A DNA stretch of 64,000 bases from a virus. Positions 5,856 through 44,400 of this stretch are shown here, piece after piece. The stretch is from the IMG/VR virus record IMGVR_UViG_3300029845_000007; one strand, given 5' to 3'. The notes beneath the pieces were generated by a model. It made no database searches. It saw nothing but the letters and a program-made list of their open reading frames with translations, and was not told the origin of the DNA. Both the position numbers and the translations under genes were made by a program. Numbering within the stretch: the stretch's first letter is position 1; each line of letters begins with the position of its first letter.

Positions 5856-8153
5856 TTAATAACGTTTACGATTCCAAAAATTTTCTTTTTCTGTTTGAAC
5901 TCTTTGTCTATGTTCAAGTTGCTTTTTAGCAAACTTATCATTAGCAGCCCATTCAATACCTCTAACAATCATTTCTGATACACGGTCAAAGTTACCAGTA
6001 TTAGACCATTTCTTTAACTCTAGTACCGACTGATAATCATATATAGTATGAAGAACAAGCATGTCACGTCCGTCTTCAAACTTCCCTATGGGGGAATACA
6101 ACATTTCCTTCAACATACGCAGACCGTCAAGTTTCACTGTCTCACTACTAATATCATAACCAATAGTATTAACCTTCTTACTATTAATATTAGTGTCCCA
6201 AAGATGAACAGGATGATAACCTAGATACTTAACAGCTTTCCACTTCTTAAAATTACTTACTGTTTCACCACGATTGATTTCAACATTAGTTGTACCAAGA
6301 CAATTATAAGTAACTGCAAAGTAATAACATATTCTGTCTGCCTTTTCTAGTTCATCAGGACGACCATAATACACAGCACATAGTCTAGGACGATAACCAT
6401 TATATATACAGGGATTCATCCATACTTTAATACTATTATGAGAATGTTTGTTAGTAAGCTCTTTTTTATCTTTATCAATACCAACAGGGTCATAACTAAT
6501 ACTATATATTCCCGGAGGAGTACCTTTAGTCAACTGACCAGTTTTCTTATCTACATATTCAACTTTAATAGGATTAAACCACTTACGAATACAACCTTCG
6601 GGGTCTTCATTAGAATGACGAGGAACATTCTTAATATAATCAAAGAAGTCTTTTCTATATACACCACCAGTTGCAGCAATACGTTCATTAGGAATAAACT
6701 CAAAGTTTTCAGAATCATATTCCACAAACTTACCGTCTATATAGAAGTTATACCTATTAGACATCTTTAGCTCTTGTTCCCATTCATCTAGTATCTCACT
6801 ACTAAATATATTCTCACTTACAGAACTAAATGATTCACTAGGCATATTAGCATATTGTCCACAATAACTAATAAACTTAGCAAATGATTTACTTTTAGCT
6901 TTTTCAATAGCACGTTCTTCTTCGGCTATCTGAAAACCTAAAACTATATCAGAATTACCGTCATCATCAAGAGATGTAAGAGTAGCAATCTGATTATCAT
7001 CACCAATCTTATAACCTTCAAGTCCCCAACAATAAGGTTTAAAATAACCACATACTTCCGGTCTACTATCTTTATCCCATACATTTTCAAATGCCATAAA
7101 GTTTCTACCTCTAGGGTCATAGAAGTTCTGTTCAAATGTAACCCAACCAGCATTAGCTTTACCAGCAGTACCCCAAGCATTAAGAAAACCAGTAGTAACA
7201 GAACCTGTCTTTAGTGTAGGTTCAGTAACATCCATAAAATCATCAAAGTTTTCAAACTCTGACATTTCCTCACACTTAATTTCTCCGGCATCTTTACCGA
7301 CAGCGGCAGAAGGATTATTCTTAGTAGACACAGATATACAAGCACTATTCCAACTATTATCATCAATAATGGCTGTACTAGGGTCTTTATAACCTAAGAT
7401 AAAATCACTAGCATCAATCTTAGCTATACCTCTTACAAATGGTGTATTAGATTCATAGAAGATAATCTGTTTCTTCATAAAGTCTGATAAACCACCTGAC
7501 TGAACTAAGAACTTGTTATCACTAGCTGCATGAATAACAGCACGATTAGGAGTAAGATTAATAAAGTTTGCAGAACCAATAGCTTCCATATAACTAAATC
7601 CACCACGACGAGTTTTATCATTTATAAGGAATAAACCATTATCTCGACAGAACTGTTTAATCAAGAAGTACCACCATTGACAATCTATGAATCGTGGAAA
7701 TCCTCTTATCTTACGTCCAGTAACTTTACCTTCTTCAACACGAAGTGTTTTAGTATCTAGTTTAAGAATACGTCCATAATTGATAAAGTTATAATGTTCA
7801 CCAGTAATATAAACCTCTTCTATCTCACCAGTTCTAGTATCCATAAGACATGGAGCTTTAAAACCTACAAGTCTACGAAGAGTTTCTTGTTTACGAAAGT
7901 TAGTATAAGGCATACTATCTACTGCAAACTTAGTATAAACCCCATCTTTCTCATAAGCAATAGCAGCAGGACGAAGAAGCTCTGTATTAACAAATCTCTT
8001 ATTTTGGTCAATGTTCATTAAGAATCCTCCACTTTCTCCTATTAAGAAATGGTCAAATGGGTCTTTATATCCAAAGTCACTAGCATGTTTATACTTCTTT
8101 CCTTTATCTTCTTCCATGTAATACATGAAAAATGGATATTCAGACAATTGCAT
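5856..8153 (-). CDS. Putative terminase large subunit.
   Basis: 765 aa. Glycine-rich P-loop-like segment (DKTRRGGFSY) in the N-terminal half. C-terminal acidic motifs (SLDDDGNSD, ISYDPVGIDKD) compatible with an RNaseH-like terminase nuclease. Located immediately upstream of portal. Confidence 0.5.
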   Translation of the reverse strand: MQLSEYPFFMYYMEEDKGKKYKHASDFGYKDPFDHFLIGESGGFLMNIDQNKRFVNTELLRPAAIAYEKDGVYTKFAVDSMPYTNFRKQETLRRLVGFKAPCLMDTRTGEIEEVYITGEHYNFINYGRILKLDTKTLRVEEGKVTGRKIRGFPRFIDCQWWYFLIKQFCRDNGLFLINDKTRRGGFSYMEAIGSANFINLTPNRAVIHAASDNKFLVQSGGLSDFMKKQIIFYESNTPFVRGIAKIDASDFILGYKDPSTAIIDDNSWNSACISVSTKNNPSAAVGKDAGEIKCEEMSEFENFDDFMDVTEPTLKTGSVTTGFLNAWGTAGKANAGWVTFEQNFYDPRGRNFMAFENVWDKDSRPEVCGYFKPYCWGLEGYKIGDDNQIATLTSLDDDGNSDIVLGFQIAEEERAIEKAKSKSFAKFISYCGQYANMPSESFSSVSENIFSSEILDEWEQELKMSNRYNFYIDGKFVEYDSENFEFIPNERIAATGGVYRKDFFDYIKNVPRHSNEDPEGCIRKWFNPIKVEYVDKKTGQLTKGTPPGIYSISYDPVGIDKDKKELTNKHSHNSIKVWMNPCIYNGYRPRLCAVYYGRPDELEKADRICYYFAVTYNCLGTTNVEINRGETVSNFKKWKAVKYLGYHPVHLWDTNINSKKVNTIGYDISSETVKLDGLRMLKEMLYSPIGKFEDGRDMLVLHTIYDYQSVLELKKWSNTGNFDRVSEMIVRGIEWAANDKFAKKQLEHRQRVQTEKENFWNRKRY

Positions 8154-13440: not shown

Positions 13441-13579
13441 TCAAACCAAATGACTATAAACATATTGCAGTTACTATCAAACCAAATGACTATAAACATA
13501 TTGCCATTGTGTGTGTGGTTAGGATGCACATTGGTTGAACAGTTGCTAACCGATTTATAACATTTAATTTATTTGTATT

Positions 13580-14254
13580 ATGGGAACAAGAGTTAATGAT
13601 GCAGCTAGAAAAGCTGCTGAAGAAGCTGCTAAGAAAGCTGCCGAAGAAGCTAAAGCTAACGCTAGTAATGATGCTAGTAACGATGCTAGTAATGATGCAC
13701 GTATCGTTGATTTGTCCGAGTATCACGGAAAAGACGCAGACGATATTACTCGTCTGTTGCTTGACCGTCCTGATTTCGAGAATCACGATAGCTTGATGAT
13801 TACTAATATCATTGATAATAGCAGTCGTTATGCAGGTGCTCTTACCATTGTTGTTAACCGTAACCTTCCACAGTTTGTGAAAGATGCTGCAAGTGGTGAT
13901 TATGTCGAGTCTGTAACTCGTAATATCTTTACCACTCGTATTCAGCTATCTGCAATACTGAAAGGTCAAGGCGAACCAATGCTTGCCAATGCTGTTATGA
14001 CTGCACCGTTATCAGTGCTGCACGTTATCTTCAAGAAGGCACGTATTAGCGTGCTTGGACACGTGCTTGGAGCAGGTGAGATATTTGTAAATCCGTATGC
14101 CAGTAAAATGGCTAAGGAGGAACGTGTTAATGAACACGACCGTTACGAGTATTTCCCATACGAACTAAGTATGCGTAGTTTGTCCCTTGCGGACGAAATG
14201 CTCGTAGCCGACATGTTGGCTAAATACCAGCCTGATGCAGAGAGTGCTGCTTAA
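13580..14254 (+). CDS. Hypothetical protein with an N-terminal AEEAAKKAAEEA/ASNDASNDASND repeat region. GC-rich codon usage.
   Basis: 224-aa ORF, first large gene of the rightward block. Local GC is clearly above the window background, and a perfect hairpin follows. Confidence 0.6.
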   Translation: MGTRVNDAARKAAEEAAKKAAEEAKANASNDASNDASNDARIVDLSEYHGKDADDITRLLLDRPDFENHDSLMITNIIDNSSRYAGALTIVVNRNLPQFVKDAASGDYVESVTRNIFTTRIQLSAILKGQGEPMLANAVMTAPLSVLHVIFKKARISVLGHVLGAGEIFVNPYASKMAKEERVNEHDRYEYFPYELSMRSLSLADEMLVADMLAKYQPDAESAA

Positions 14255-14262
14255 CCAGTTAC

Positions 14263-14286
14263 GTAGGAGAGAGAAATCTCTCCTAC
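14263..14286 (+). terminator. Perfect 10-bp stem with GAAA loop (GTAGGAGAGA-gaaa-TCTCTCCTAC) between convergent genes.
   Basis: Seen directly in the sequence. The U-tract is weak, so it could act as a bidirectional terminator or a protein-binding palindrome. Confidence 0.35.
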
Positions 14287-14411
14287 TAAACTAAGAATAC
14301 ACCATTCGGCACGTGTTCGACAATACTACCGACTTATGCTCGCCGTCCGGCAAAGCCTTCGGGCACAGCCGTCAGGCAAAGCCACTAAGGATTGGAAACG
14401 ACACTAGTCAC

Positions 14412-14465
14412 CTGATAAGCGAAATGCTACAACTGATAAGCGAATCCAACCAACTGATAAGCTAT
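14412..14465. repeat. Three iteron-like direct repeats, CTGATAAGCGAA / CTGATAAGCGAA / CTGATAAGCTAT, at about 21-bp spacing.
   Basis: Copies begin at 14412, 14433 and 14454. The last overlaps the stop codon of the winged-helix gene. They sit in a GC-rich non-coding stretch (14255-14461). Confidence 0.6.
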
Positions 14466-14977
14466 TTGTCCGAATACAGTCTCATGTAATCCGATACGAA
14501 CTTGTTTCTATCTCCCATGAACATCATATTATGGTTTATGATATAGACATTGTTCTTATCATTAATAGCTTTAGCTATAAAGTTAGCATCGATTAGTTGA
14601 CGGATACCGTCACTTATTCTCTGTTGACTAACAGACAATTCACCAGCAATCTTAGTTTGGTTAAGTACTATCCAGTTACAACCGAAACCTATATTCCTAT
14701 ATATGTAATTCAACATGGATAAACCATGGGTCTTTAAATATCTTAGGTTAGACATTCCATCGAAGTACAACTGCATAAAGTTACCTGTATATCTAACTTT
14801 ATCATCTTCGATTACAACAATTGTCTTACCTGTCTTATTAGCCCATTGTTTAAGCTCGTCAAGACTGTCGTCAGAACAATCTTTAGGATTAATATTAAAA
14901 GGAAATACAGTAGGTTTGATAAGATTGTCCACTGGTTGGACTTTAGCATTAGCTTTAGCATTTGTTTCTACTTTCAT
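14462..14977 (-). CDS. Winged-helix DNA-binding protein (Rep-initiator-like or transcriptional regulator).
   Basis: 171 aa. ...NWIVLNQTKIAGELSVSQQRISDGIRQLIDANFI... is a typical HTH recognition-helix/wing. Flanked by iteron-like repeats on the 3' side and an inverted-repeat operator pair on the 5' side. Confidence 0.55.
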   Translation of the reverse strand: MKVETNAKANAKVQPVDNLIKPTVFPFNINPKDCSDDSLDELKQWANKTGKTIVVIEDDKVRYTGNFMQLYFDGMSNLRYLKTHGLSMLNYIYRNIGFGCNWIVLNQTKIAGELSVSQQRISDGIRQLIDANFIAKAINDKNNVYIINHNMMFMGDRNKFVSDYMRLYSDK

Positions 14978-15019
14978 AATTGTTAATTTATAGTTAAAAA
15001 CTCATTTTCGGCTTCTAAA

Positions 15020-15082
15020 TTACACAGATTTGCGTGTAAAAACAAGCATTACACCTAGTATTTTACACAGATTTGCGTGTAA
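15020..15082. promoter_or_regulatory. Two copies of a 20-bp operator-like site, TTACACAGATTTGCGTGTAA, upstream of the winged-helix gene.
   Basis: Copies at 15020-15039 and 15063-15082. The ends TTACAC/GTGTAA are inverted repeats. Located 43-105 bp upstream of the start codon at 14977. Confidence 0.55.
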
Positions 15083-15179
15083 TTTGAAATTCGTAACTGA
15101 CTGATAATGACCGATTTAACATAAAATTAACACGCTATAACAAGATAGGGAATCTTGTAAAAAATAGATTTTTATTTTG

Positions 15180-15960
15180 TATATGCAAATATAATACTAT
15201 TTTTTTTATTAGCTCACCTATTCGATGACTATTGTCGTAGACAATAGGAAGAAGCTCATACAATAACAACAGTAGTATCAACAATAGTATTATCAACATC
15301 AGTAGTATGAATAGTATGAATAGTATTATCAACATCAATAGGAAGAAGACTATTACTAATATCAATAGCATCAATAGTAGTATGAATAGTAAGATATAGA
15401 GATGATAGCGAAACTACATTCCCTTAACTCAATATAACTCCTCACACTTACTAAATTAAACCTCTTAATGTTTACTTTTGAACCTATTCAAAATCCATAT
15501 AGAGTATAAATCAAATTTATTCGATTGTACTATTATCGCTATGTTTCCGATACTATATTTCCGATACTCTATCGTCATTGTTACTATCGTCATTGTTATT
15601 ATATTATATTATTATACTATCACATGTTATTACTATTACTATTAGGTTTTAATCTAATCTCACTATTGCCAATCTCACTATATACTATTAGTATTATATC
15701 TTGGTTGTATTGTATGAGGTCTAGTTCCTATTCTTACAGAATAGTTCACTAGTATATTAATACTATATATAACATCTGATAACGAGAATACCAATAGATT
15801 GAATATAAGGCTATATAATAGACTGGATAGTATTATTACCAATAGATTGGATAATAGAATAAGTATAGTAATATGTATAAATATGTATAGATATGTATTA
15901 CTATTAATATCTAGATTACTATTTGGTTTGTTACTTAGCTGGTCTAGTCCCGCTCGCAAA
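15180..15960. repeat. Low-complexity, minisatellite-like non-coding region.
   Basis: Repeated units include aataggaagaag, agtagtatgaatagta, tttccgatact x2 and tatcgtcattgtta x2. Only spurious Leu/Ile-rich ORFs overlap it. Confidence 0.5.
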
Positions 15961-16000
15961 GCTCGCTTTTCTCCCCCATAAAGGAGCGTGATTGCTGTTA
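15938..16000 (+). repeat. Extended intergenic copy of the GC-rich dispersed element.
   Basis: gctggtctagtcccgctcgcaaagctcgcttttctcccccataaaggagcgtgattgctgtta. About 50 nt closely resemble 40807-40856, and its 3' half resembles 8480-8510. Confidence 0.7.
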
Positions 16001-16218
16001 CATCTTCACCTTTTATTTACCATTTAACTTATATCATTATGAATACCGATATTTATTTCTTTATAATAACTGTATTACTATTTGTTATTACTACTCTCTT
16101 ACTGAATAACTATCTCATTGATAAGAAGTCTAATATTTTGTCTATGACAATATTTATTATAGCTGTTATGGCTATCGTTATTATCTGTGTTGCAATATTT
16201 AATCTTTCTAGTATATGA
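15988..16218 (+). CDS. Small membrane protein.
   Basis: 76-aa ORF with two hydrophobic segments. The likely start is the internal Met (MNTDIYFF...). Confidence 0.3.
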   Translation: MIAVTSSPFIYHLTYIIMNTDIYFFIITVLLFVITTLLLNNYLIDKKSNILSMTIFIIAVMAIVIICVAIFNLSSI

Positions 16219-40351: not shown

Positions 40352-40537
40352 ATGACAAAAAGAATAAGCGTTAAAGTAAAAGCCTATCAATCTAATGGAT
40401 TTAGTAGAACTTGTAAGAACTGTATTTATAGACCTTGTACTCCAATGCAATTAAATCTATGTACTAAAGCCTATATAGAAGGTTATATGAAAGGTTACAA
40501 GAGAGCTAAAAAAGATATTAAAGAAAGAATAATATGA
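40352..40537 (+). CDS. Small zinc-ribbon protein.
   Basis: CKNC...C...C. 61 aa. Confidence 0.4.
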   Translation: MTKRISVKVKAYQSNGFSRTCKNCIYRPCTPMQLNLCTKAYIEGYMKGYKRAKKDIKERII

Positions 40538-40712
40538 CACTAGAAACTGTTGGAATAATTATAGGAGGATTAATATTTGCATCAATACCATTTGGAATGT
40601 TAATCTATTGTATTGTAAAAGAATTAGCTGAAAAGAAGTTATGGGGATATTTATTATTCATAGTAATAATGATAATATTGTTTTTAACGAAATCTTCCAT
40701 AGAAACTTCATA
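40536..40712 (+). CDS. Small membrane protein (58 aa, 2 TM).
   Basis: ATGA overlap with the previous ORF. MTLETVGIIIGGLIFASIPFGMLIYCIV... Confidence 0.3.
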
Positions 40713-40806
40713 ATAGATTAGAACTATTAATAGTAGTAATACTGTTGATAGTTCTTTTTTTTATGTTGTACTTGGATAAAATCAACGTATTAATGATAGT
40801 TGTATT

Positions 40807-40915
40807 GCTGGACTTGCCTACGCTCGCAAAGCTCGCTAAATCCCCCATAAAGGAATGGAATTATAGGTAAACCACTCCTCTATGGGGGAAGAAAGCGAGC
40901 CGATAGGCGAGCGAG
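40807..40915. repeat. About 110-bp imperfect palindrome built from two inverted extended copies of the GC-rich dispersed element.
   Basis: Left arm cgctcgcaaagctcgct-aaa-tcccccataaaggaatgg. Right arm ccactcctctatggggga-agaa-agcgagccgataggcgagcgag. Located at the convergence point of the rightward and leftward gene blocks. Confidence 0.7.
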
Positions 40916-41347
40916 ATATAGTAAAGCTAGTATTAATAATAATAGTTCAAACAATAATACTAACGGCACTGGGGATAGTGTTCAGGAAGATGTTCTTCGT
41001 TAGATAGAACATTTGGGAACTTTTTGGATATAGTGAGGTCATAGACGGAGTAAATAGTATTCGGCTCTTTTTCGGGTAGTGAAGCTAAATCAATCGCTAT
41101 TGACAATCATTCTACTAATCCTTGTAGCTTTGTTTCTATTTATCGTCCGAGGTTTTGCACTAGGGCGGAGACACTGCCTAAATGAAATAGTACTTATAAG
41201 TACTAAGACTAATCGAGTTCCCTAGCTCTCCACACTACACGCAACTAATCTAATTAGTCAGATAGCAAATGCTAAATCCCGTACAACAGTCCGAGACGGT
41301 AGGTACTTGTTCACTGCAAAGGTAGTAATTATTTTGATATAAACAAT

Positions 41348-41378
41348 AAGTCGGACTACTTTCACAAGCAATCCGACT
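41348..41378 (-). terminator. Possible terminator downstream of the giant gene.
   Basis: 7-bp stem (agtcgga/tccgact) with a 16-nt loop, followed on the minus-strand RNA by a U-rich tract. Weak. Confidence 0.3.
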
Positions 41379-41408
41379 TTCCTATGAGTTGTAATATTAA
41401 GTAGTTAG

Positions 41409-44400
41409 TTATTCTTCATCTTCATCAGTAATCATATTAGCAACAACTTGACCTAAACCACTAAACGGACTACTACGTACTTTATAGTAACTATTATTAG
41501 CACCAAGTCTTTCATGTTTTATAATCTGATTAACTAATGGTACTTGTTTAAAGAAATTTACTACAAGTTTATTTTCATCTGAATAGCTTCCTGAATTATA
41601 ATATAAATCATCAGGATTACCAGTAATAATATAGCTACAAAGTGCTCCTAATAATCTAAGATTATCTTGCGCAATACTTAATGCAGCAACAGGTTGACTA
41701 TATAGTTTCTTACCTTCATTAGCTAATCCCCACGGAGTATATTGAATAATTTCAGACATTAGACGGTCAGCACTATATAAGATATAGTCAGCTACTTGTG
41801 TAGAATCATCATCGTCATCTAGCATTAATTTTCCTACTACAAATAGTGCTACTGCTTTAGTAATAGCTATCCATTCACCTAAGCATCTACGAATATTGGC
41901 TTTATCATATTCAGGAAGAATGTTATAATAAGTAGTAAGATTAGCTACAAAATCTGCATAACCTTTAGCAATTCCTTGAAGAGTACGAACAGCTTGAAGT
42001 TCGTTACTATCATTAAGTTCGTAGTATTTCTTAAATGGCATTGCTATAAACTCACCTAAACTAACATAAGTTCCTTTACTAATAGATTCTCTAGTTTCAT
42101 TATATATACCGTCAAAGTGACCTAAACGATAACCAAAACGTTTTTGGAATCCAGGAACTAAGTGTTTATGGAACTGCATTAGTAAAGCTCCCCACCAAGA
42201 TTGTTGTAATTGATTAGCACCAATCTTATCATAGATACCATGTATTTGATGATTAACTGATATAACCTTATTACGGAAAGCTGCAATATCATTATTAGTA
42301 AGACCACTGTCAGGTTTAAGAATAGCAACACCATTTTTCAAGATAAGACTTTCTCTAAAAGAAGGATGATTCTCGAACTTAGTTCTTTCTTCTTTAGTAT
42401 CTTCTTTATAGGTAGCTTTAAACTCTTCTCTTATCTCTTTAGGAACAGAGCGTAAGAAGTCAGTTATTATATCAGCTTTAAACTTAACATAACGTTCTTT
42501 CTCAATATATGATTCAAGTACTTTATCTCTGAATGTTTCATATTTAGTAACTAATTCAGGATTATTCTTACGAAGAACTTTAAGCAATGCTTCTTCTCTA
42601 AGTCCCATAGCAAACTGTTCAAATGACATTACTTTATTCTTACCATTAACAGTAACAACTCTATGAGAATGAAGCATAGCTAACAATGTAGCGTTCTGCA
42701 TATAATGTTCACCTGCGGTTTGTTGGATAAACAACAGATTTTCTAATTTACCCATAGGATTGTTACCTTTACCATAACGTTCTGTTATCATATCAGATTC
42801 AATAACATTGAATAATCTAATAATAGCATTAGTTTCGTTATTAGTAGTTTCATTATAAGCATCAGCTAAATAACTACCTACATTCTGCATCCATTCGTTC
42901 TCACCTTTACGGAAGTCTTTGTATTTAAAGAATTGTCCGGCAGCCATTTCCATTTGTATCTGTGTCTTACCATATAATACGTTGGCAATACCACCAGTAA
43001 CGTTTAACATCATAAACTTACTAGATACCATATTACGCATAACACGAGATACTTTAGAACGAGTACCTTCATCCATTTCAAATTCATTAAATACTAACTT
43101 ACGAACTTGATTCTCAAAGTGCTTAACTATATTAGAATCATCACTTTTAGTTGTGCGTATTTCTTGTTTACCAGTAATTCTACTAAGTAATCTATTATCC
43201 ATAAGTTTATCGTTAGGATTTCTCTTAATAATATCCATATTACGTAATTGATTACTAGTAATTTTAGCTAATCTAGCTATATCATTACGAGTATTAAAGT
43301 TATACATACTATCAATAAATGAATTAAGTCTTTCAAGAACATTAGGATTATTACGTTCTACATTTTCCTGTGCTCTTTGCTTACGTAACTCATTGTTCCT
43401 AGCTTGAGTTTCACGAACATAAGCTAGATATTCATCAGTAGTTTCACCTTCTTGTTTCTCACGAATAGGAAGAAGTTTAATCTCTGATAAACTATGTAAC
43501 ATAGGAGCATTACTAAATCTTTTATATAGATTAAGCTCTATATCAGATTTATTAGGAGTATCATACCAACCATGACTGCGTTTAAAGTCTTGCCAATAAT
43601 CAGTAAATCCTTGATGTGGTTGTTCAACAGCTTGATTAGGTAAATAACCACGATTAATATAAGCACGACTACGTTTATCTTTAACAAGACTATTAAGTAG
43701 ATTATCTACTTCATTGTATAGTTGTTGCTGATAGTTATTCATTCCATAATATTTATCATTGCGATATTTATTAGTAGAAGGTTGTAACTTAACTTCATCA
43801 TAGTTAGGATTCTTGTACTTGTCTTTAACTTTAGTTTCTAACCATTTATATTTAGGACTATATTCCATATTATTAGCTTCGTCCTTAACTATCATTTGTC
43901 TCCAAATAGCTAATGGTTCGTATTCTTTAGTAATAGGATTAAGCACATGATTCTCGTTATACCATTTATCAAATACTACTTTACCCATTTTGTTCATAGC
44001 CACATACATAGCTTCGTAGTATACAGTATTGATATAGCTTATATGCTCATCTAACCACTTTTGAGCTTGTTCTTCATTTGGCTTAACTCTACCAACAGCT
44101 GCTGCAAACATTTGCTCTTGATGTTTCTTTAAGTTAGCTATTTGCACTTCTGTAAACTTAGTACCGTCAATAACACCTGTTTCATCATACTTACCGTATG
44201 CCATAGTACGAACAAAACTATCAAAAGGATTGCCAGCACGAGTATCCATATAAGCTTTCTTTAACTCATCTAAGAACTCACCTTTTAACTTATAGTCAGT
44301 ATTAGCTTTAAGCCATTCAGCTGATTCTCGATAAGTTTCAGATGTTTCAGGGTATTGAAGTCCTTCAATAGCTTGTTTATAACGAATAGTAAAAGCATCC

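Follow-up and report, generated by a model that had tools for sequence, protein, structure and literature searches.

A convergent gene junction in a crAss-like gut phage combines terminators, a dispersed-motif palindrome, and a conserved exchangeable block

What does a phage keep in a gap of some 700 nucleotides (nt) that lies between two converging operons and holds no evident gene? The question is raised by the window analyzed here, the whole 64,000-nt stretch of IMG/VR virus record IMGVR_UViG_3300029845_000007, in which the last rightward open reading frame (ORF) stops at 40713 and a leftward ORF of 4239 amino acids (aa) stops at 41409. Our analysis indicates that the gap contains an ORF-less block that is most likely, as predicted from its sequence and its conservation, a promoter-driven noncoding RNA module. 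We describe the gap as a conserved convergent junction of three functional layers, namely terminators, a palindrome built from a dispersed 14-nt motif, and an exchangeable cassette that includes the block; this composite, taken as a whole, is advanced tentatively, at a little less than an even chance of being right.

The junction and its exchangeable block

A blastn search with positions 40400-41700 against 50,697 phage records matched only Bacteroides phage crAss002 (MN917146) and uncultured phage cr107_1 (MT774377), with ~91.5% identity across 85% of the query. By sequence similarity, the window is assigned to a crAss-like phage of the genus Jahgtovirus (Crassvirales, Intestiviridae), related to crAss002. 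This genus and its relatives rank among the most abundant human gut viruses. The window is antiparallel to the crAss002 record, with position 41409 corresponding approximately to 63979 in MN917146. The counterpart of the giant 4239-aa ORF in crAss002 is gp33, annotated as "putative RNAP catalytic subunit" (RNAP, RNA polymerase), and comparison with crAss002 identifies the rightward block as a replication module encoding dUTPase, primase, helicases, and polymerase. Variation at the junction was followed in 86 distinct junction sequences reaching the palindrome, recovered from IMG/VR and metagenomes, and a genus whose giant protein is 47% identical served as a distant comparison.

The original prediction, made from the sequence of the window, described the gap as noncoding, and this is borne out: no credible ORF lies between 40713 and 41409. 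Within 40900-41420 none of the frames is open, and because TAA, TAG, and TGA all occur in each frame, simple stop-codon reassignment creates no gene there; coding under either standard or recoded stops was rejected. The small ORFs of the gap carry frameshifts or nonconservative changes among relatives (27 variants checked), with the exception of the one at 41079-41225 on the plus strand, which is considered below. A small transmembrane-like ORF running across a terminator and the left arm of the palindrome was likewise rejected, as relatives show 1-nt indels and nonconservative changes (M/G/R/K). The gap had also been called unusually long, but it is not unique, since 14978-16038 is another stretch of ~1 kb without a long ORF. 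Its content of guanine plus cytosine (GC) is 37-42% over 40800-41400 versus 22-33% in the flanks.

Both converging transcription units end at their own intrinsic terminators. A terminator consensus scan of 40500-41600 returned exactly two sites, versus 0.7 expected. The plus-strand terminator starts 7 nt past the last rightward stop codon and is conserved in all relatives. The minus-strand terminator sits 30 nt past the stop codon of the giant gene; its stem is perfect only on the minus strand, where two G.U pairs would be C.A on the plus strand, and among relatives it shows a compensatory change (GTCGGA/TCCGAC to GCCGGA/TCCGGC). A hairpin noted earlier at 41349-41378 is therefore real, and in the scan it is this terminator. 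Because these hairpins sit directly at both edges of the gap, the convergent operons are already served, and ~590 nt lie between the two terminators.

Alignment of the junctions shows that 40947-41385 is replaced wholesale in many relatives. The ORF-less block is present in 64% of the 86 junctions, and cassettes with RepL-like or Rep-O-like initiator genes are present in 36%. In class A (47 junctions) the block stands by itself, and in class A+ (8 junctions) it is accompanied by a 233-nt insertion encoding crAss002 gp34 (71 aa). Class B (21 junctions) carries a 163-aa RepL-like gene, class C (8 junctions) a 182-aa HTH_36 / "replication initiation O-like" gene with a 75-aa gene, and class D (2 junctions) a 190-aa, weakly Phage_rep_O-like gene with two small genes. 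The slot is never empty, as the stop codon and the palindrome are nowhere less than 518 nt apart. The class B protein (locus L020) scores 24.2 bits against the RepL family PF05732 (cut-off 20.3), and classes C and D give weaker matches only (HTH_36, the PHROG "replication initiation O-like," and Phage_rep_O). The Rep-like genes point in the plus direction of the window, with host-type promoters adjoining the palindrome and direct repeats upstream, and each of their cassettes closes with its own form of the shared terminator hairpin; in class B a different hairpin stands at the position of the minus-strand terminator. Genes filling the gap in relatives had been named in advance as a finding that would count against a noncoding element. 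Such genes (gp34 and the Rep-like genes) are indeed present, but they replace or adjoin the block and do not overlap it. A metagenome scan likewise found a relative of 83% identity with a RepL cassette in place of the block. One metagenome contig (L206, 4189-5972) holds, in tandem, the block, the palindrome, a duplicate of the last ~120 nt of the giant gene, a RepL cassette, and a second palindrome; it either arose by genuine recombination or is a chimera in which assembly joined two strains present together. We rate the locus as a phage accessory hot spot, with an orphan noncoding module beside a dispersed-motif site. No published description of the slot, the block, or the motif was found in the literature, where searches for noncoding RNAs and motifs of crAss-like phages gave only an observation on phage phi14:2, taken up below.

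The block is conserved to a degree that its surroundings are not. Mean identity to the window is 98.0% in 40960-41340 and 99.5% in 41040-41250, compared with 93% in the giant gene and 90% in the palindrome region. Among 54 distinct block-bearing haplotypes, nucleotide diversity is 0.0065 in the core (41040-41250), 0.059 in the 5' part and 0.042 in the 3' part of the block, 0.036 in the promoter described below, and 0.050 in the terminator hairpin and spacer (41346-41408). The last 1200 nt of the giant gene have a diversity of 0.065 (0.044, 0.021, and 0.132 at codon positions 1, 2, and 3). The core is thus the most conserved DNA nearby, more so than the second codon positions of the adjacent virion RNA-polymerase-like gene. 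Because both ends of the same cassette show normal diversity, selection can account for this conservation and a recent sweep cannot; the haplotypes indicate that the core is under very strong purifying selection, with nearly every base constrained.

This conservation is confined to one genus, as the block was seen only in contigs and records of Jahgtovirus. In IMG/VR, a 23-mer of the core occurs in 28 contigs of 30-143 kb, and all those cross-referenced are Jahgtovirus contigs with the giant gene. The core 22- and 23-mers tested were not matched exactly anywhere in a set of 185,579 bacterial and archaeal species, each represented by a single genome, and an nhmmer search with the block found no match in loci of the genus with the 47% identical giant protein. 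We found no paralogs, antisense targets, or diversity-generating-retroelement variable repeat of the block, which neither the window nor the complete crAss002 genome contains a second time, and no RepL operator sequence within it. The core also includes a perfect palindrome, AGTACTTATAAGTACT, in an 18-nt self-match at 41188-41205, and a C/T difference at 41190 splits the haplotypes 38/16.

The primary-sigma promoter consensus of Bacteroides consists of a −33 TTG and a −7 TAnnTTTG, ~19-21 nt apart. A candidate promoter of this type lies on the minus strand next to the giant-gene terminator (Table 1). Neither box changes across 27 variants, and the five columns that do vary in the 30-nt promoter all belong to the spacer. 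Full promoter matches number 18 in the window, only 4 of them intergenic; the match at the block is informative because each of the other three intergenic matches precedes a gene start by ~30-75 nt and is correctly oriented. No comparable plus-strand promoter was found before the block, and class A+ and B cassettes have one adjoining the palindrome.

Table 1. Features of the convergent junction, and the related element at the divergent junction, in window coordinates
Feature	Coordinates	Strand	Remarks
Intrinsic terminator of the rightward block	40720-40763	+	16-bp AT-rich stem-loop at 40720-40755, then T8 (TTTTTTTT)
Spacer from terminator to palindrome	40764-40820		~90% identical among relatives; last ~15 nt (GCTGGACTTGCCTA) part of the extended element, resembling 15937-15950
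Left GC-rich mini-repeat	40822-40836 (17-mer 40821-40837)	+	GCTCGC-AAA-GCTCGC; exact second copy at 15951-15967
Dispersed motif copy	40841-40854	+	TCCCCCATAAAGGA; one of 18 window copies
Spacer between motif copies	40855-40875		21 nt; 21-23 nt in relatives, inner pairing poorly kept
Inverted motif copy	40876-40889	-	TCCCCCATAGAGGA; varies independently of the left copy in 82 variants
Right GC-rich mini-hairpin	40895-40912	+	GCGAGCC-GATA-GGCGAGC with tandem G.A mismatches; two haplotypes
Exchangeable cassette	40947-41385		Noncoding block plus its own terminator hairpin; breakpoints from the junction alignment
Ultra-conserved core	41040-41250		9 of 211 columns variable in 54 haplotypes
Candidate 48-aa ORF	41079-41225	+	GTG start, hydrophobic; inside the core, intact in all variants
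Bacteroides-type promoter	41346-41317	-	TTG-N19-TACCTTTG; predicted start ~41310 (~64080 in MN917146), directed into the block
Intrinsic terminator of the 4239-aa gene	41379-41348	-	14-bp stem, then T-rich tail (ATTGTTTATA)
Extended dispersed element, single copy, at the divergent junction	15937-15985	+	Points toward the rightward block

A proposed role for the block

Four roles had been suggested for the gap, namely a bidirectional terminator, a replication terminus, a packaging or terminal-repeat boundary, and a noncoding RNA. The last of these, applied to 40947-41345, is the best of the four, with the promoter and the purifying selection supporting it and RNA structure and covariation failing to do so. 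In the scheme that we propose, host polymerase would transcribe a minus-strand RNA of ~360-470 nt, from ~41310 toward ~40950 or on to the palindrome. The RNA, the act of transcription, or the DNA itself would then work through its sequence and not through a stable fold, because the core is not unusually foldable; base-pairing, priming or R-loop formation, and factor binding are candidate modes. The role of the block would relate to replication initiation, copy control, or maintenance, a guess made because the slot is occupied in every junction and, wherever the block is missing, holds a Rep-like module with repeats next to it. That the block has a specific role in replication is nevertheless doubtful, and we are equally hesitant about the full version of the idea, in which the block would serve replication or maintenance by way of RNA, whether as an origin primed by transcription or as an RNA that regulates copy number or immunity, and would be functionally interchangeable with the RepL- and Rep-O-like cassettes. 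If it were true, a single locus in virulent crAss-like gut phages would be a place where replicon modules of the plasmid type, some built on protein and others on RNA, are exchanged, with direct bearing on the phage-plasmid lifestyle proposed for crAssphages.

Several results weigh against an RNA module with such a role. The chance of a full promoter match in a 700-nt gap is ~0.15, and no clear minus-strand terminator for the proposed RNA was found. No excess folding was detected over 40947-41308 (z = −0.44 on the minus and −0.55 on the plus strand) or in the core (z = +0.33 and +0.23). RNAalifold consensus energies are comparable for the two strands (−72.4 and −76.6), and variable paired columns are kept about as often as they are broken. 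There is one clean compensatory pair in the block, located in a small variable hairpin (alignment A2, columns 39 and 50, with T-A in 18 sequences and C-G in 8). Unstructured, near-total conservation of 211 nt fits a DNA-level element or overlapping coding equally well. In addition, the link to replication is an analogy drawn solely from what occupies the same slot in other genomes, and the winged helix-turn-helix (wHTH) proteins encoded there could be regulators instead of initiators.

These folding data also settle how far the region merits its earlier description as a GC-richer, structured segment: it is GC-richer, but it is not structured beyond expectation, and the comparison of structure and covariance across relatives that had been suggested as a check turned up little on either strand. 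An apparent stability excess of the block was rejected because the minus-strand z of −2.6 had included the terminator hairpin, and covariation was set aside as a means of choosing the strand, as both strands fit about equally. Rfam gave no match anywhere in the window at the gathering threshold and only subthreshold chance matches in 40650-41480 at E values up to 10, and ARAGORN found no tRNA or tmRNA.

The palindrome, the dispersed motif, and the divergent junction

The second layer of the junction had been described as a palindrome made of two inverted copies of an extended dispersed element, and this description stands, with arms at 40821-40858 and 40872-40912. The reported likeness of the left arm to an intergenic copy near 15938-15990 was recovered as well, ~50 nt of it resembling 15930-15990; the 17-mer CGCTCGCAAAGCTCGCT occurs exactly twice in the window, at 15951 and 40821. 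Absence of the palindrome from close relatives would have spoken against its importance, and it is present in 86 of the 86 distinct relatives examined. The left mini-repeat is invariant in relatives except for one single-base variant and an AA/AAA difference in length. The right mini-hairpin exists in only two haplotypes across 99 loci, the window type in 60 and a fully Watson-Crick GCTAGCC-GTTA-GGCTAGC in 39, which amounts to a single event and is weak evidence.

The palindrome folds very well on paper. Its minimum free energy (MFE) as RNA is −52.1 kcal/mol on the plus strand (z = −7.0) and −61.0 kcal/mol on the minus strand (z = −8.1), and as DNA it reaches z-scores of −7.6 and −6.8, with 0 of 200 shuffles folding as well. 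In the window the minus strand is 9 kcal/mol more stable, but the minus strand folds better in 42 and the plus strand in 41 of 83 variants, and a strand asymmetry was therefore rejected. The two motif arms vary independently in 82 variants, and they do so at positions where the dispersed motif varies too (7, 10, and 14). These arm changes produce A.C (8), G.T (6), and G.G (2) cells, the inner extension is for the most part mismatched, and no compensatory substitution in the stem was found among the 82 variants. No U-run follows the stem, the 3' flank being AGAAAG (plus) and AUUUAG (minus), and the palindrome is not among the sites returned by the terminator scan. Because each copy drifts on its own within the range of variation that the motif allows, and because on average the two strands fold equally well, the palindrome is best read as a putative double recognition site for a sequence-specific factor, protein or polymerase, and not as a selected hairpin. 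Its hairpin potential could still serve as a secondary barrier between the transcription units.

The alternative is that the palindrome acts as a bidirectional RNA hairpin, whether terminator, insulator, or processing site, and that its resemblance to the dispersed motif is incidental. The very stable folds on both strands (z of −7 and −8) and the placement exactly between convergent units favor this explanation, the lack of strand bias in the 83 variants suits a bidirectional role, and in the distant genus inverted motif pairs follow the giant-gene terminator or separate co-directional genes, as intergenic RNA hairpins do. On the other hand, canonical terminators already stand on both sides, the plus strand lacks a U-tract and the minus strand offers only AUUUAG, and stem positions vary independently (A.C, G.G, G.A) without compensation, the inner extension being mostly mismatched. 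The 14-mer is, moreover, far more often single, mostly within ORFs and in contexts that are mostly not unusually structured. We regard a bidirectional hairpin as possible, though well on the unlikely side. The suggestion of a bidirectional terminator thus survives for the edges of the gap, where the terminators are real, and fails for the palindrome itself, which has neither a U-tract nor compensatory pairing.

Reading the palindrome as a pair of recognition sites draws attention to the motif. TCCCCCATAAAGGA occurs in 18 copies in the window at two mismatches or fewer, versus 0.15 expected, and 27 are present in crAss002, many of them at places where the window has one too. Most copies lie within ORFs, in both orientations (in the window at 2497, 8481, 10487, 19334, 26127, 31044, 32190, 36570, 46429, 51498, 55220, 57530, and 60567). 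All six sense copies within ORFs read S-P-I-K/E-E, often followed by QQ; one reading frame of the motif is ruled out anyway because it contains TAA. A GC-rich stretch, whose complement reads GCGAAGC or folds as a GCGGC-loop-GCCGC hairpin, lies just upstream of several in-ORF copies and is retained across differing coding contexts. The idea that the motif copies are hairpin arms was rejected, since single copies lie mostly in contexts that are not unusually structured. Copy orientation has no polarity across the genome: the best two-arm model fits 20 of 27 sites, and 52% of shuffles do as well (p = 0.52), so that polar Ter-, KOPS-, or Chi-like sites and Tus-Ter or RTP-Ter sites were rejected.

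A related motif, CGCCCCGTAGAGGAG, is dispersed in the distant genus, with at least three exact copies in one 85.7-kb contig. Inverted pairs of it lie directly after the giant-gene terminator and between two co-directional genes, in the opposite arrangement and with spacers of 31-100 nt. One such pair (L091, 4884-4983) has a 31-nt spacer, an MFE of −38 kcal/mol, and a z of −6.4; it is located between co-directional genes of 857 and 496 aa and ends ~35 nt upstream of the downstream start codon. At another locus of that genus (L066, 4250-4505), the giant-gene terminator is immediately succeeded, on its own strand, by a promoter of the Bacteroides type, TTG-N19-TATATTTG, and after this promoter come a 35-aa hydrophobic ORF, an intrinsic terminator, and then the motif palindrome. 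Because the motif changes in concert across the genome and is kept as a sequence and not as a pairing partner, its distribution points to a putative sequence-specific reader, either a protein or a polymerase.

The single extended copy of the element marks the divergent junction of the window. A RepL homolog is encoded there at 14462-14977 on the minus strand (PF05732, 30.0 bits, cut-off 20.3; E = 4.5e-83 to the class B protein), with two exact 20-nt repeats, TTACACAGATTTGCGTGTAA, upstream of it at 15020 and 15063. Beyond these repeats lie ~750 nt of AT-rich DNA with many different short repeats, ending at the extended element (15951-15985). Taken together, 14462-15940 looks like an origin-plus-initiator region, as far as gene content and repeats can indicate. 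RepL appears to be accessory, because crAss002 has none and a peptide-pattern scan found RepL relatives in only 14 IMG/VR contigs (3 of the divergent-site type and 11 of the slot type). The corresponding place in crAss002 is an unannotated gap of ~950 bp between gp78 and gp79 (MN917146, 89897-90842; L068, 39897-40842). Next to the RepL gene, 13500-14460 has 44-50% GC in a genome of ~30% GC; it covers a 224-aa ORF (13580-14254, plus strand) that aligns with the gp80 region of crAss002 and also holds ~200 nt that are ORF-free at 50% GC.

Alternative explanations and known systems

The exception among the small ORFs of the gap suggests a different account of the block, as a type I toxin-antitoxin-like or small-protein module in which a 48-aa peptide on the plus strand is paired with an antisense RNA from the minus-strand promoter. 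Type I toxins are typically conserved at the nucleotide level and missed by gene callers, and both traits would fit here. The ORF lies in the most conserved core, is the only one intact in all 27 variants, and encodes a transmembrane-like segment followed by a basic tail, with a V/I polymorphism; the antisense promoter is downstream of it, and the slot otherwise holds plasmid-type modules. A toxin-antitoxin system has also been reported near repL in prototypic crAssphage (PMC10983915). Against these points stand the absence of a host-type plus-strand promoter upstream, the GTG start codon, and the fact that 400 nt would be expected to hold an ORF this long by chance. Variation affects only 3 of its 49 third positions, versus 44% in the giant gene, so that coding alone cannot explain the conservation. 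The peptide has no Pfam or NCBIfam match, and no protein in 5.8 billion clusters shares even short words with it. We consider a module of this kind quite unlikely.

An explanation at the level of DNA replication would make the palindrome a terminus, fork barrier, or dimer-resolution site, or the block an origin with no RNA effector. The cumulative GC skew peaks at the gap, the core is conserved without RNA structure, and the alternative cassettes resemble Rep-plus-iteron replicons with repeats abutting the palindrome. Two inverted sites at a convergence also recall IRI/IRII of Bacillus subtilis. But the skew switch coincides with the switch in gene direction, and motif orientation has no polarity (p = 0.52); on both grounds the replication terminus that had been suggested is unsupported. 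The block itself has no AT-rich unwinding element and no iterons (ACTAATC occurs three times, which 39% of shuffles match), and origin-like repeats and a RepL gene are found instead at the divergent junction (15000-15940), with the qualification that RepL is accessory (absent in crAss002, 14 IMG/VR contigs). A DNA-level replication element is, in our view, unlikely. A pac or cos site or terminal-repeat boundary, which had also been suggested, is highly improbable. In its favor, 13 of ~115 related contigs break off in the interval from the stop codon of the giant gene to the palindrome, and two full-length contigs (95,237 and 95,998 bp) share the same end base, at window position 40753-40755, the foot of the plus-strand terminator hairpin; contig ends cluster at the junction in L025, L034, L045, L050, L051, L154, L161, L192, L199, L202, and L207 and in L036 and L063. 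However, breaks are expected at hairpins and where the cassettes of strains differ, and the clustering is explained by the mixture of cassettes among strains found together. Of the relatives, 36% lack the block, the terminase gene (5856-8153) is ~33 kb away with the entire replication block between, and for crAss002 headful packaging has been predicted, starting at a pac site and yielding permuted genomes (PMC8042965).

The preferred reading of the block, as a promoter-driven noncoding RNA module, leaves three concrete handles on the replication, persistence, and gene regulation of crAss-like gut phages: the orphan element, the never-empty slot, and the dispersed motif. The first is a noncoding element with a host-type promoter and no known family. 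The second, in which that element alternates with three initiator-like cassettes, makes replicon and maintenance functions of these phages testable. The third, a motif of 14-15 nt that changes in concert across genera, is paired at the convergent junction, and is extended at the divergent one, may lead to an injected polymerase or a phage DNA-binding protein. Should none of the readings hold, the region would still be a clear recombination hot spot that breaks metagenomic assemblies.

How do these layers compare with known systems? The flanking hairpins are like Rho-independent terminators at convergent gene ends, being two GC-containing stem-loops with T-runs after the stop codons, one with a compensatory change; they explain only ~75 nt of the ~700-nt gap, and the palindrome lacks a T-run. 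The motif resembles the REP/BIME elements of enterobacteria in being short and dispersed, as single copies or inverted pairs between genes and at operon ends, but it lies mostly inside ORFs, in both orientations, and in contexts mostly not unusually structured. It fails the tested defining features of both REP/BIME and Ter sites. The hairpin promoters of the phage N4 virion RNA polymerase offer another parallel. N4 and the present phage both inject a virion RNA polymerase active on single-stranded DNA; by analogy, the extended element likewise combines a conserved sequence with a small GC hairpin, and one extended copy lies directly upstream of the early block, pointing inward. Unlike N4 promoters, most motif copies are within genes and many are antisense, and in the crAss-like phage phi14:2 no common early-promoter motif was found.

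For the cassette slot, the closest comparison is with RepL and phage O-type initiator modules, as in the phage-plasmid proposal for crAssphage (PMC10983915). The alternative cassettes encode RepL- or O-like wHTH proteins with upstream direct repeats, and the window has its own RepL beside origin-like repeats; the cassette of the window differs in encoding no protein. For the block itself, the nearest precedents are the intergenic RNAs of phi14:2, type I toxin-antitoxin loci, and transcription-primed origins, none of which is confirmed as its family. The long intergenic RNAs of phi14:2 are transcribed above most genes and have no assigned function (bioRxiv 10.1101/2020.03.07.982082). They too come from ORF-free intergenic stretches of several hundred nucleotides in a crAss-like phage, but they lie at the early left end, and the RNA of the block is a predicted one. 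Type I loci such as hok/sok, par/Fst, and txpA/ratA resemble it in size (~400 nt), in combining a small hydrophobic ORF with an antisense promoter that converges on it, in sharing a terminator hairpin, and in very strong conservation of the nucleotide sequence; the block differs in having neither a toxin promoter nor a family match, and in the GC-poor context of its GTG start. Transcription-primed origins, such as ColE1 RNA II and the R-loops at T4 oriF and oriG, are likened to the block by position, with no RNA I-like Rfam match of the ColE1 type. By this analogy, the block would parallel them in placing several hundred conserved, ORF-free nucleotides behind a host-type promoter, with a hairpin-rich element downstream, in a slot that holds Rep replicon modules in relatives.

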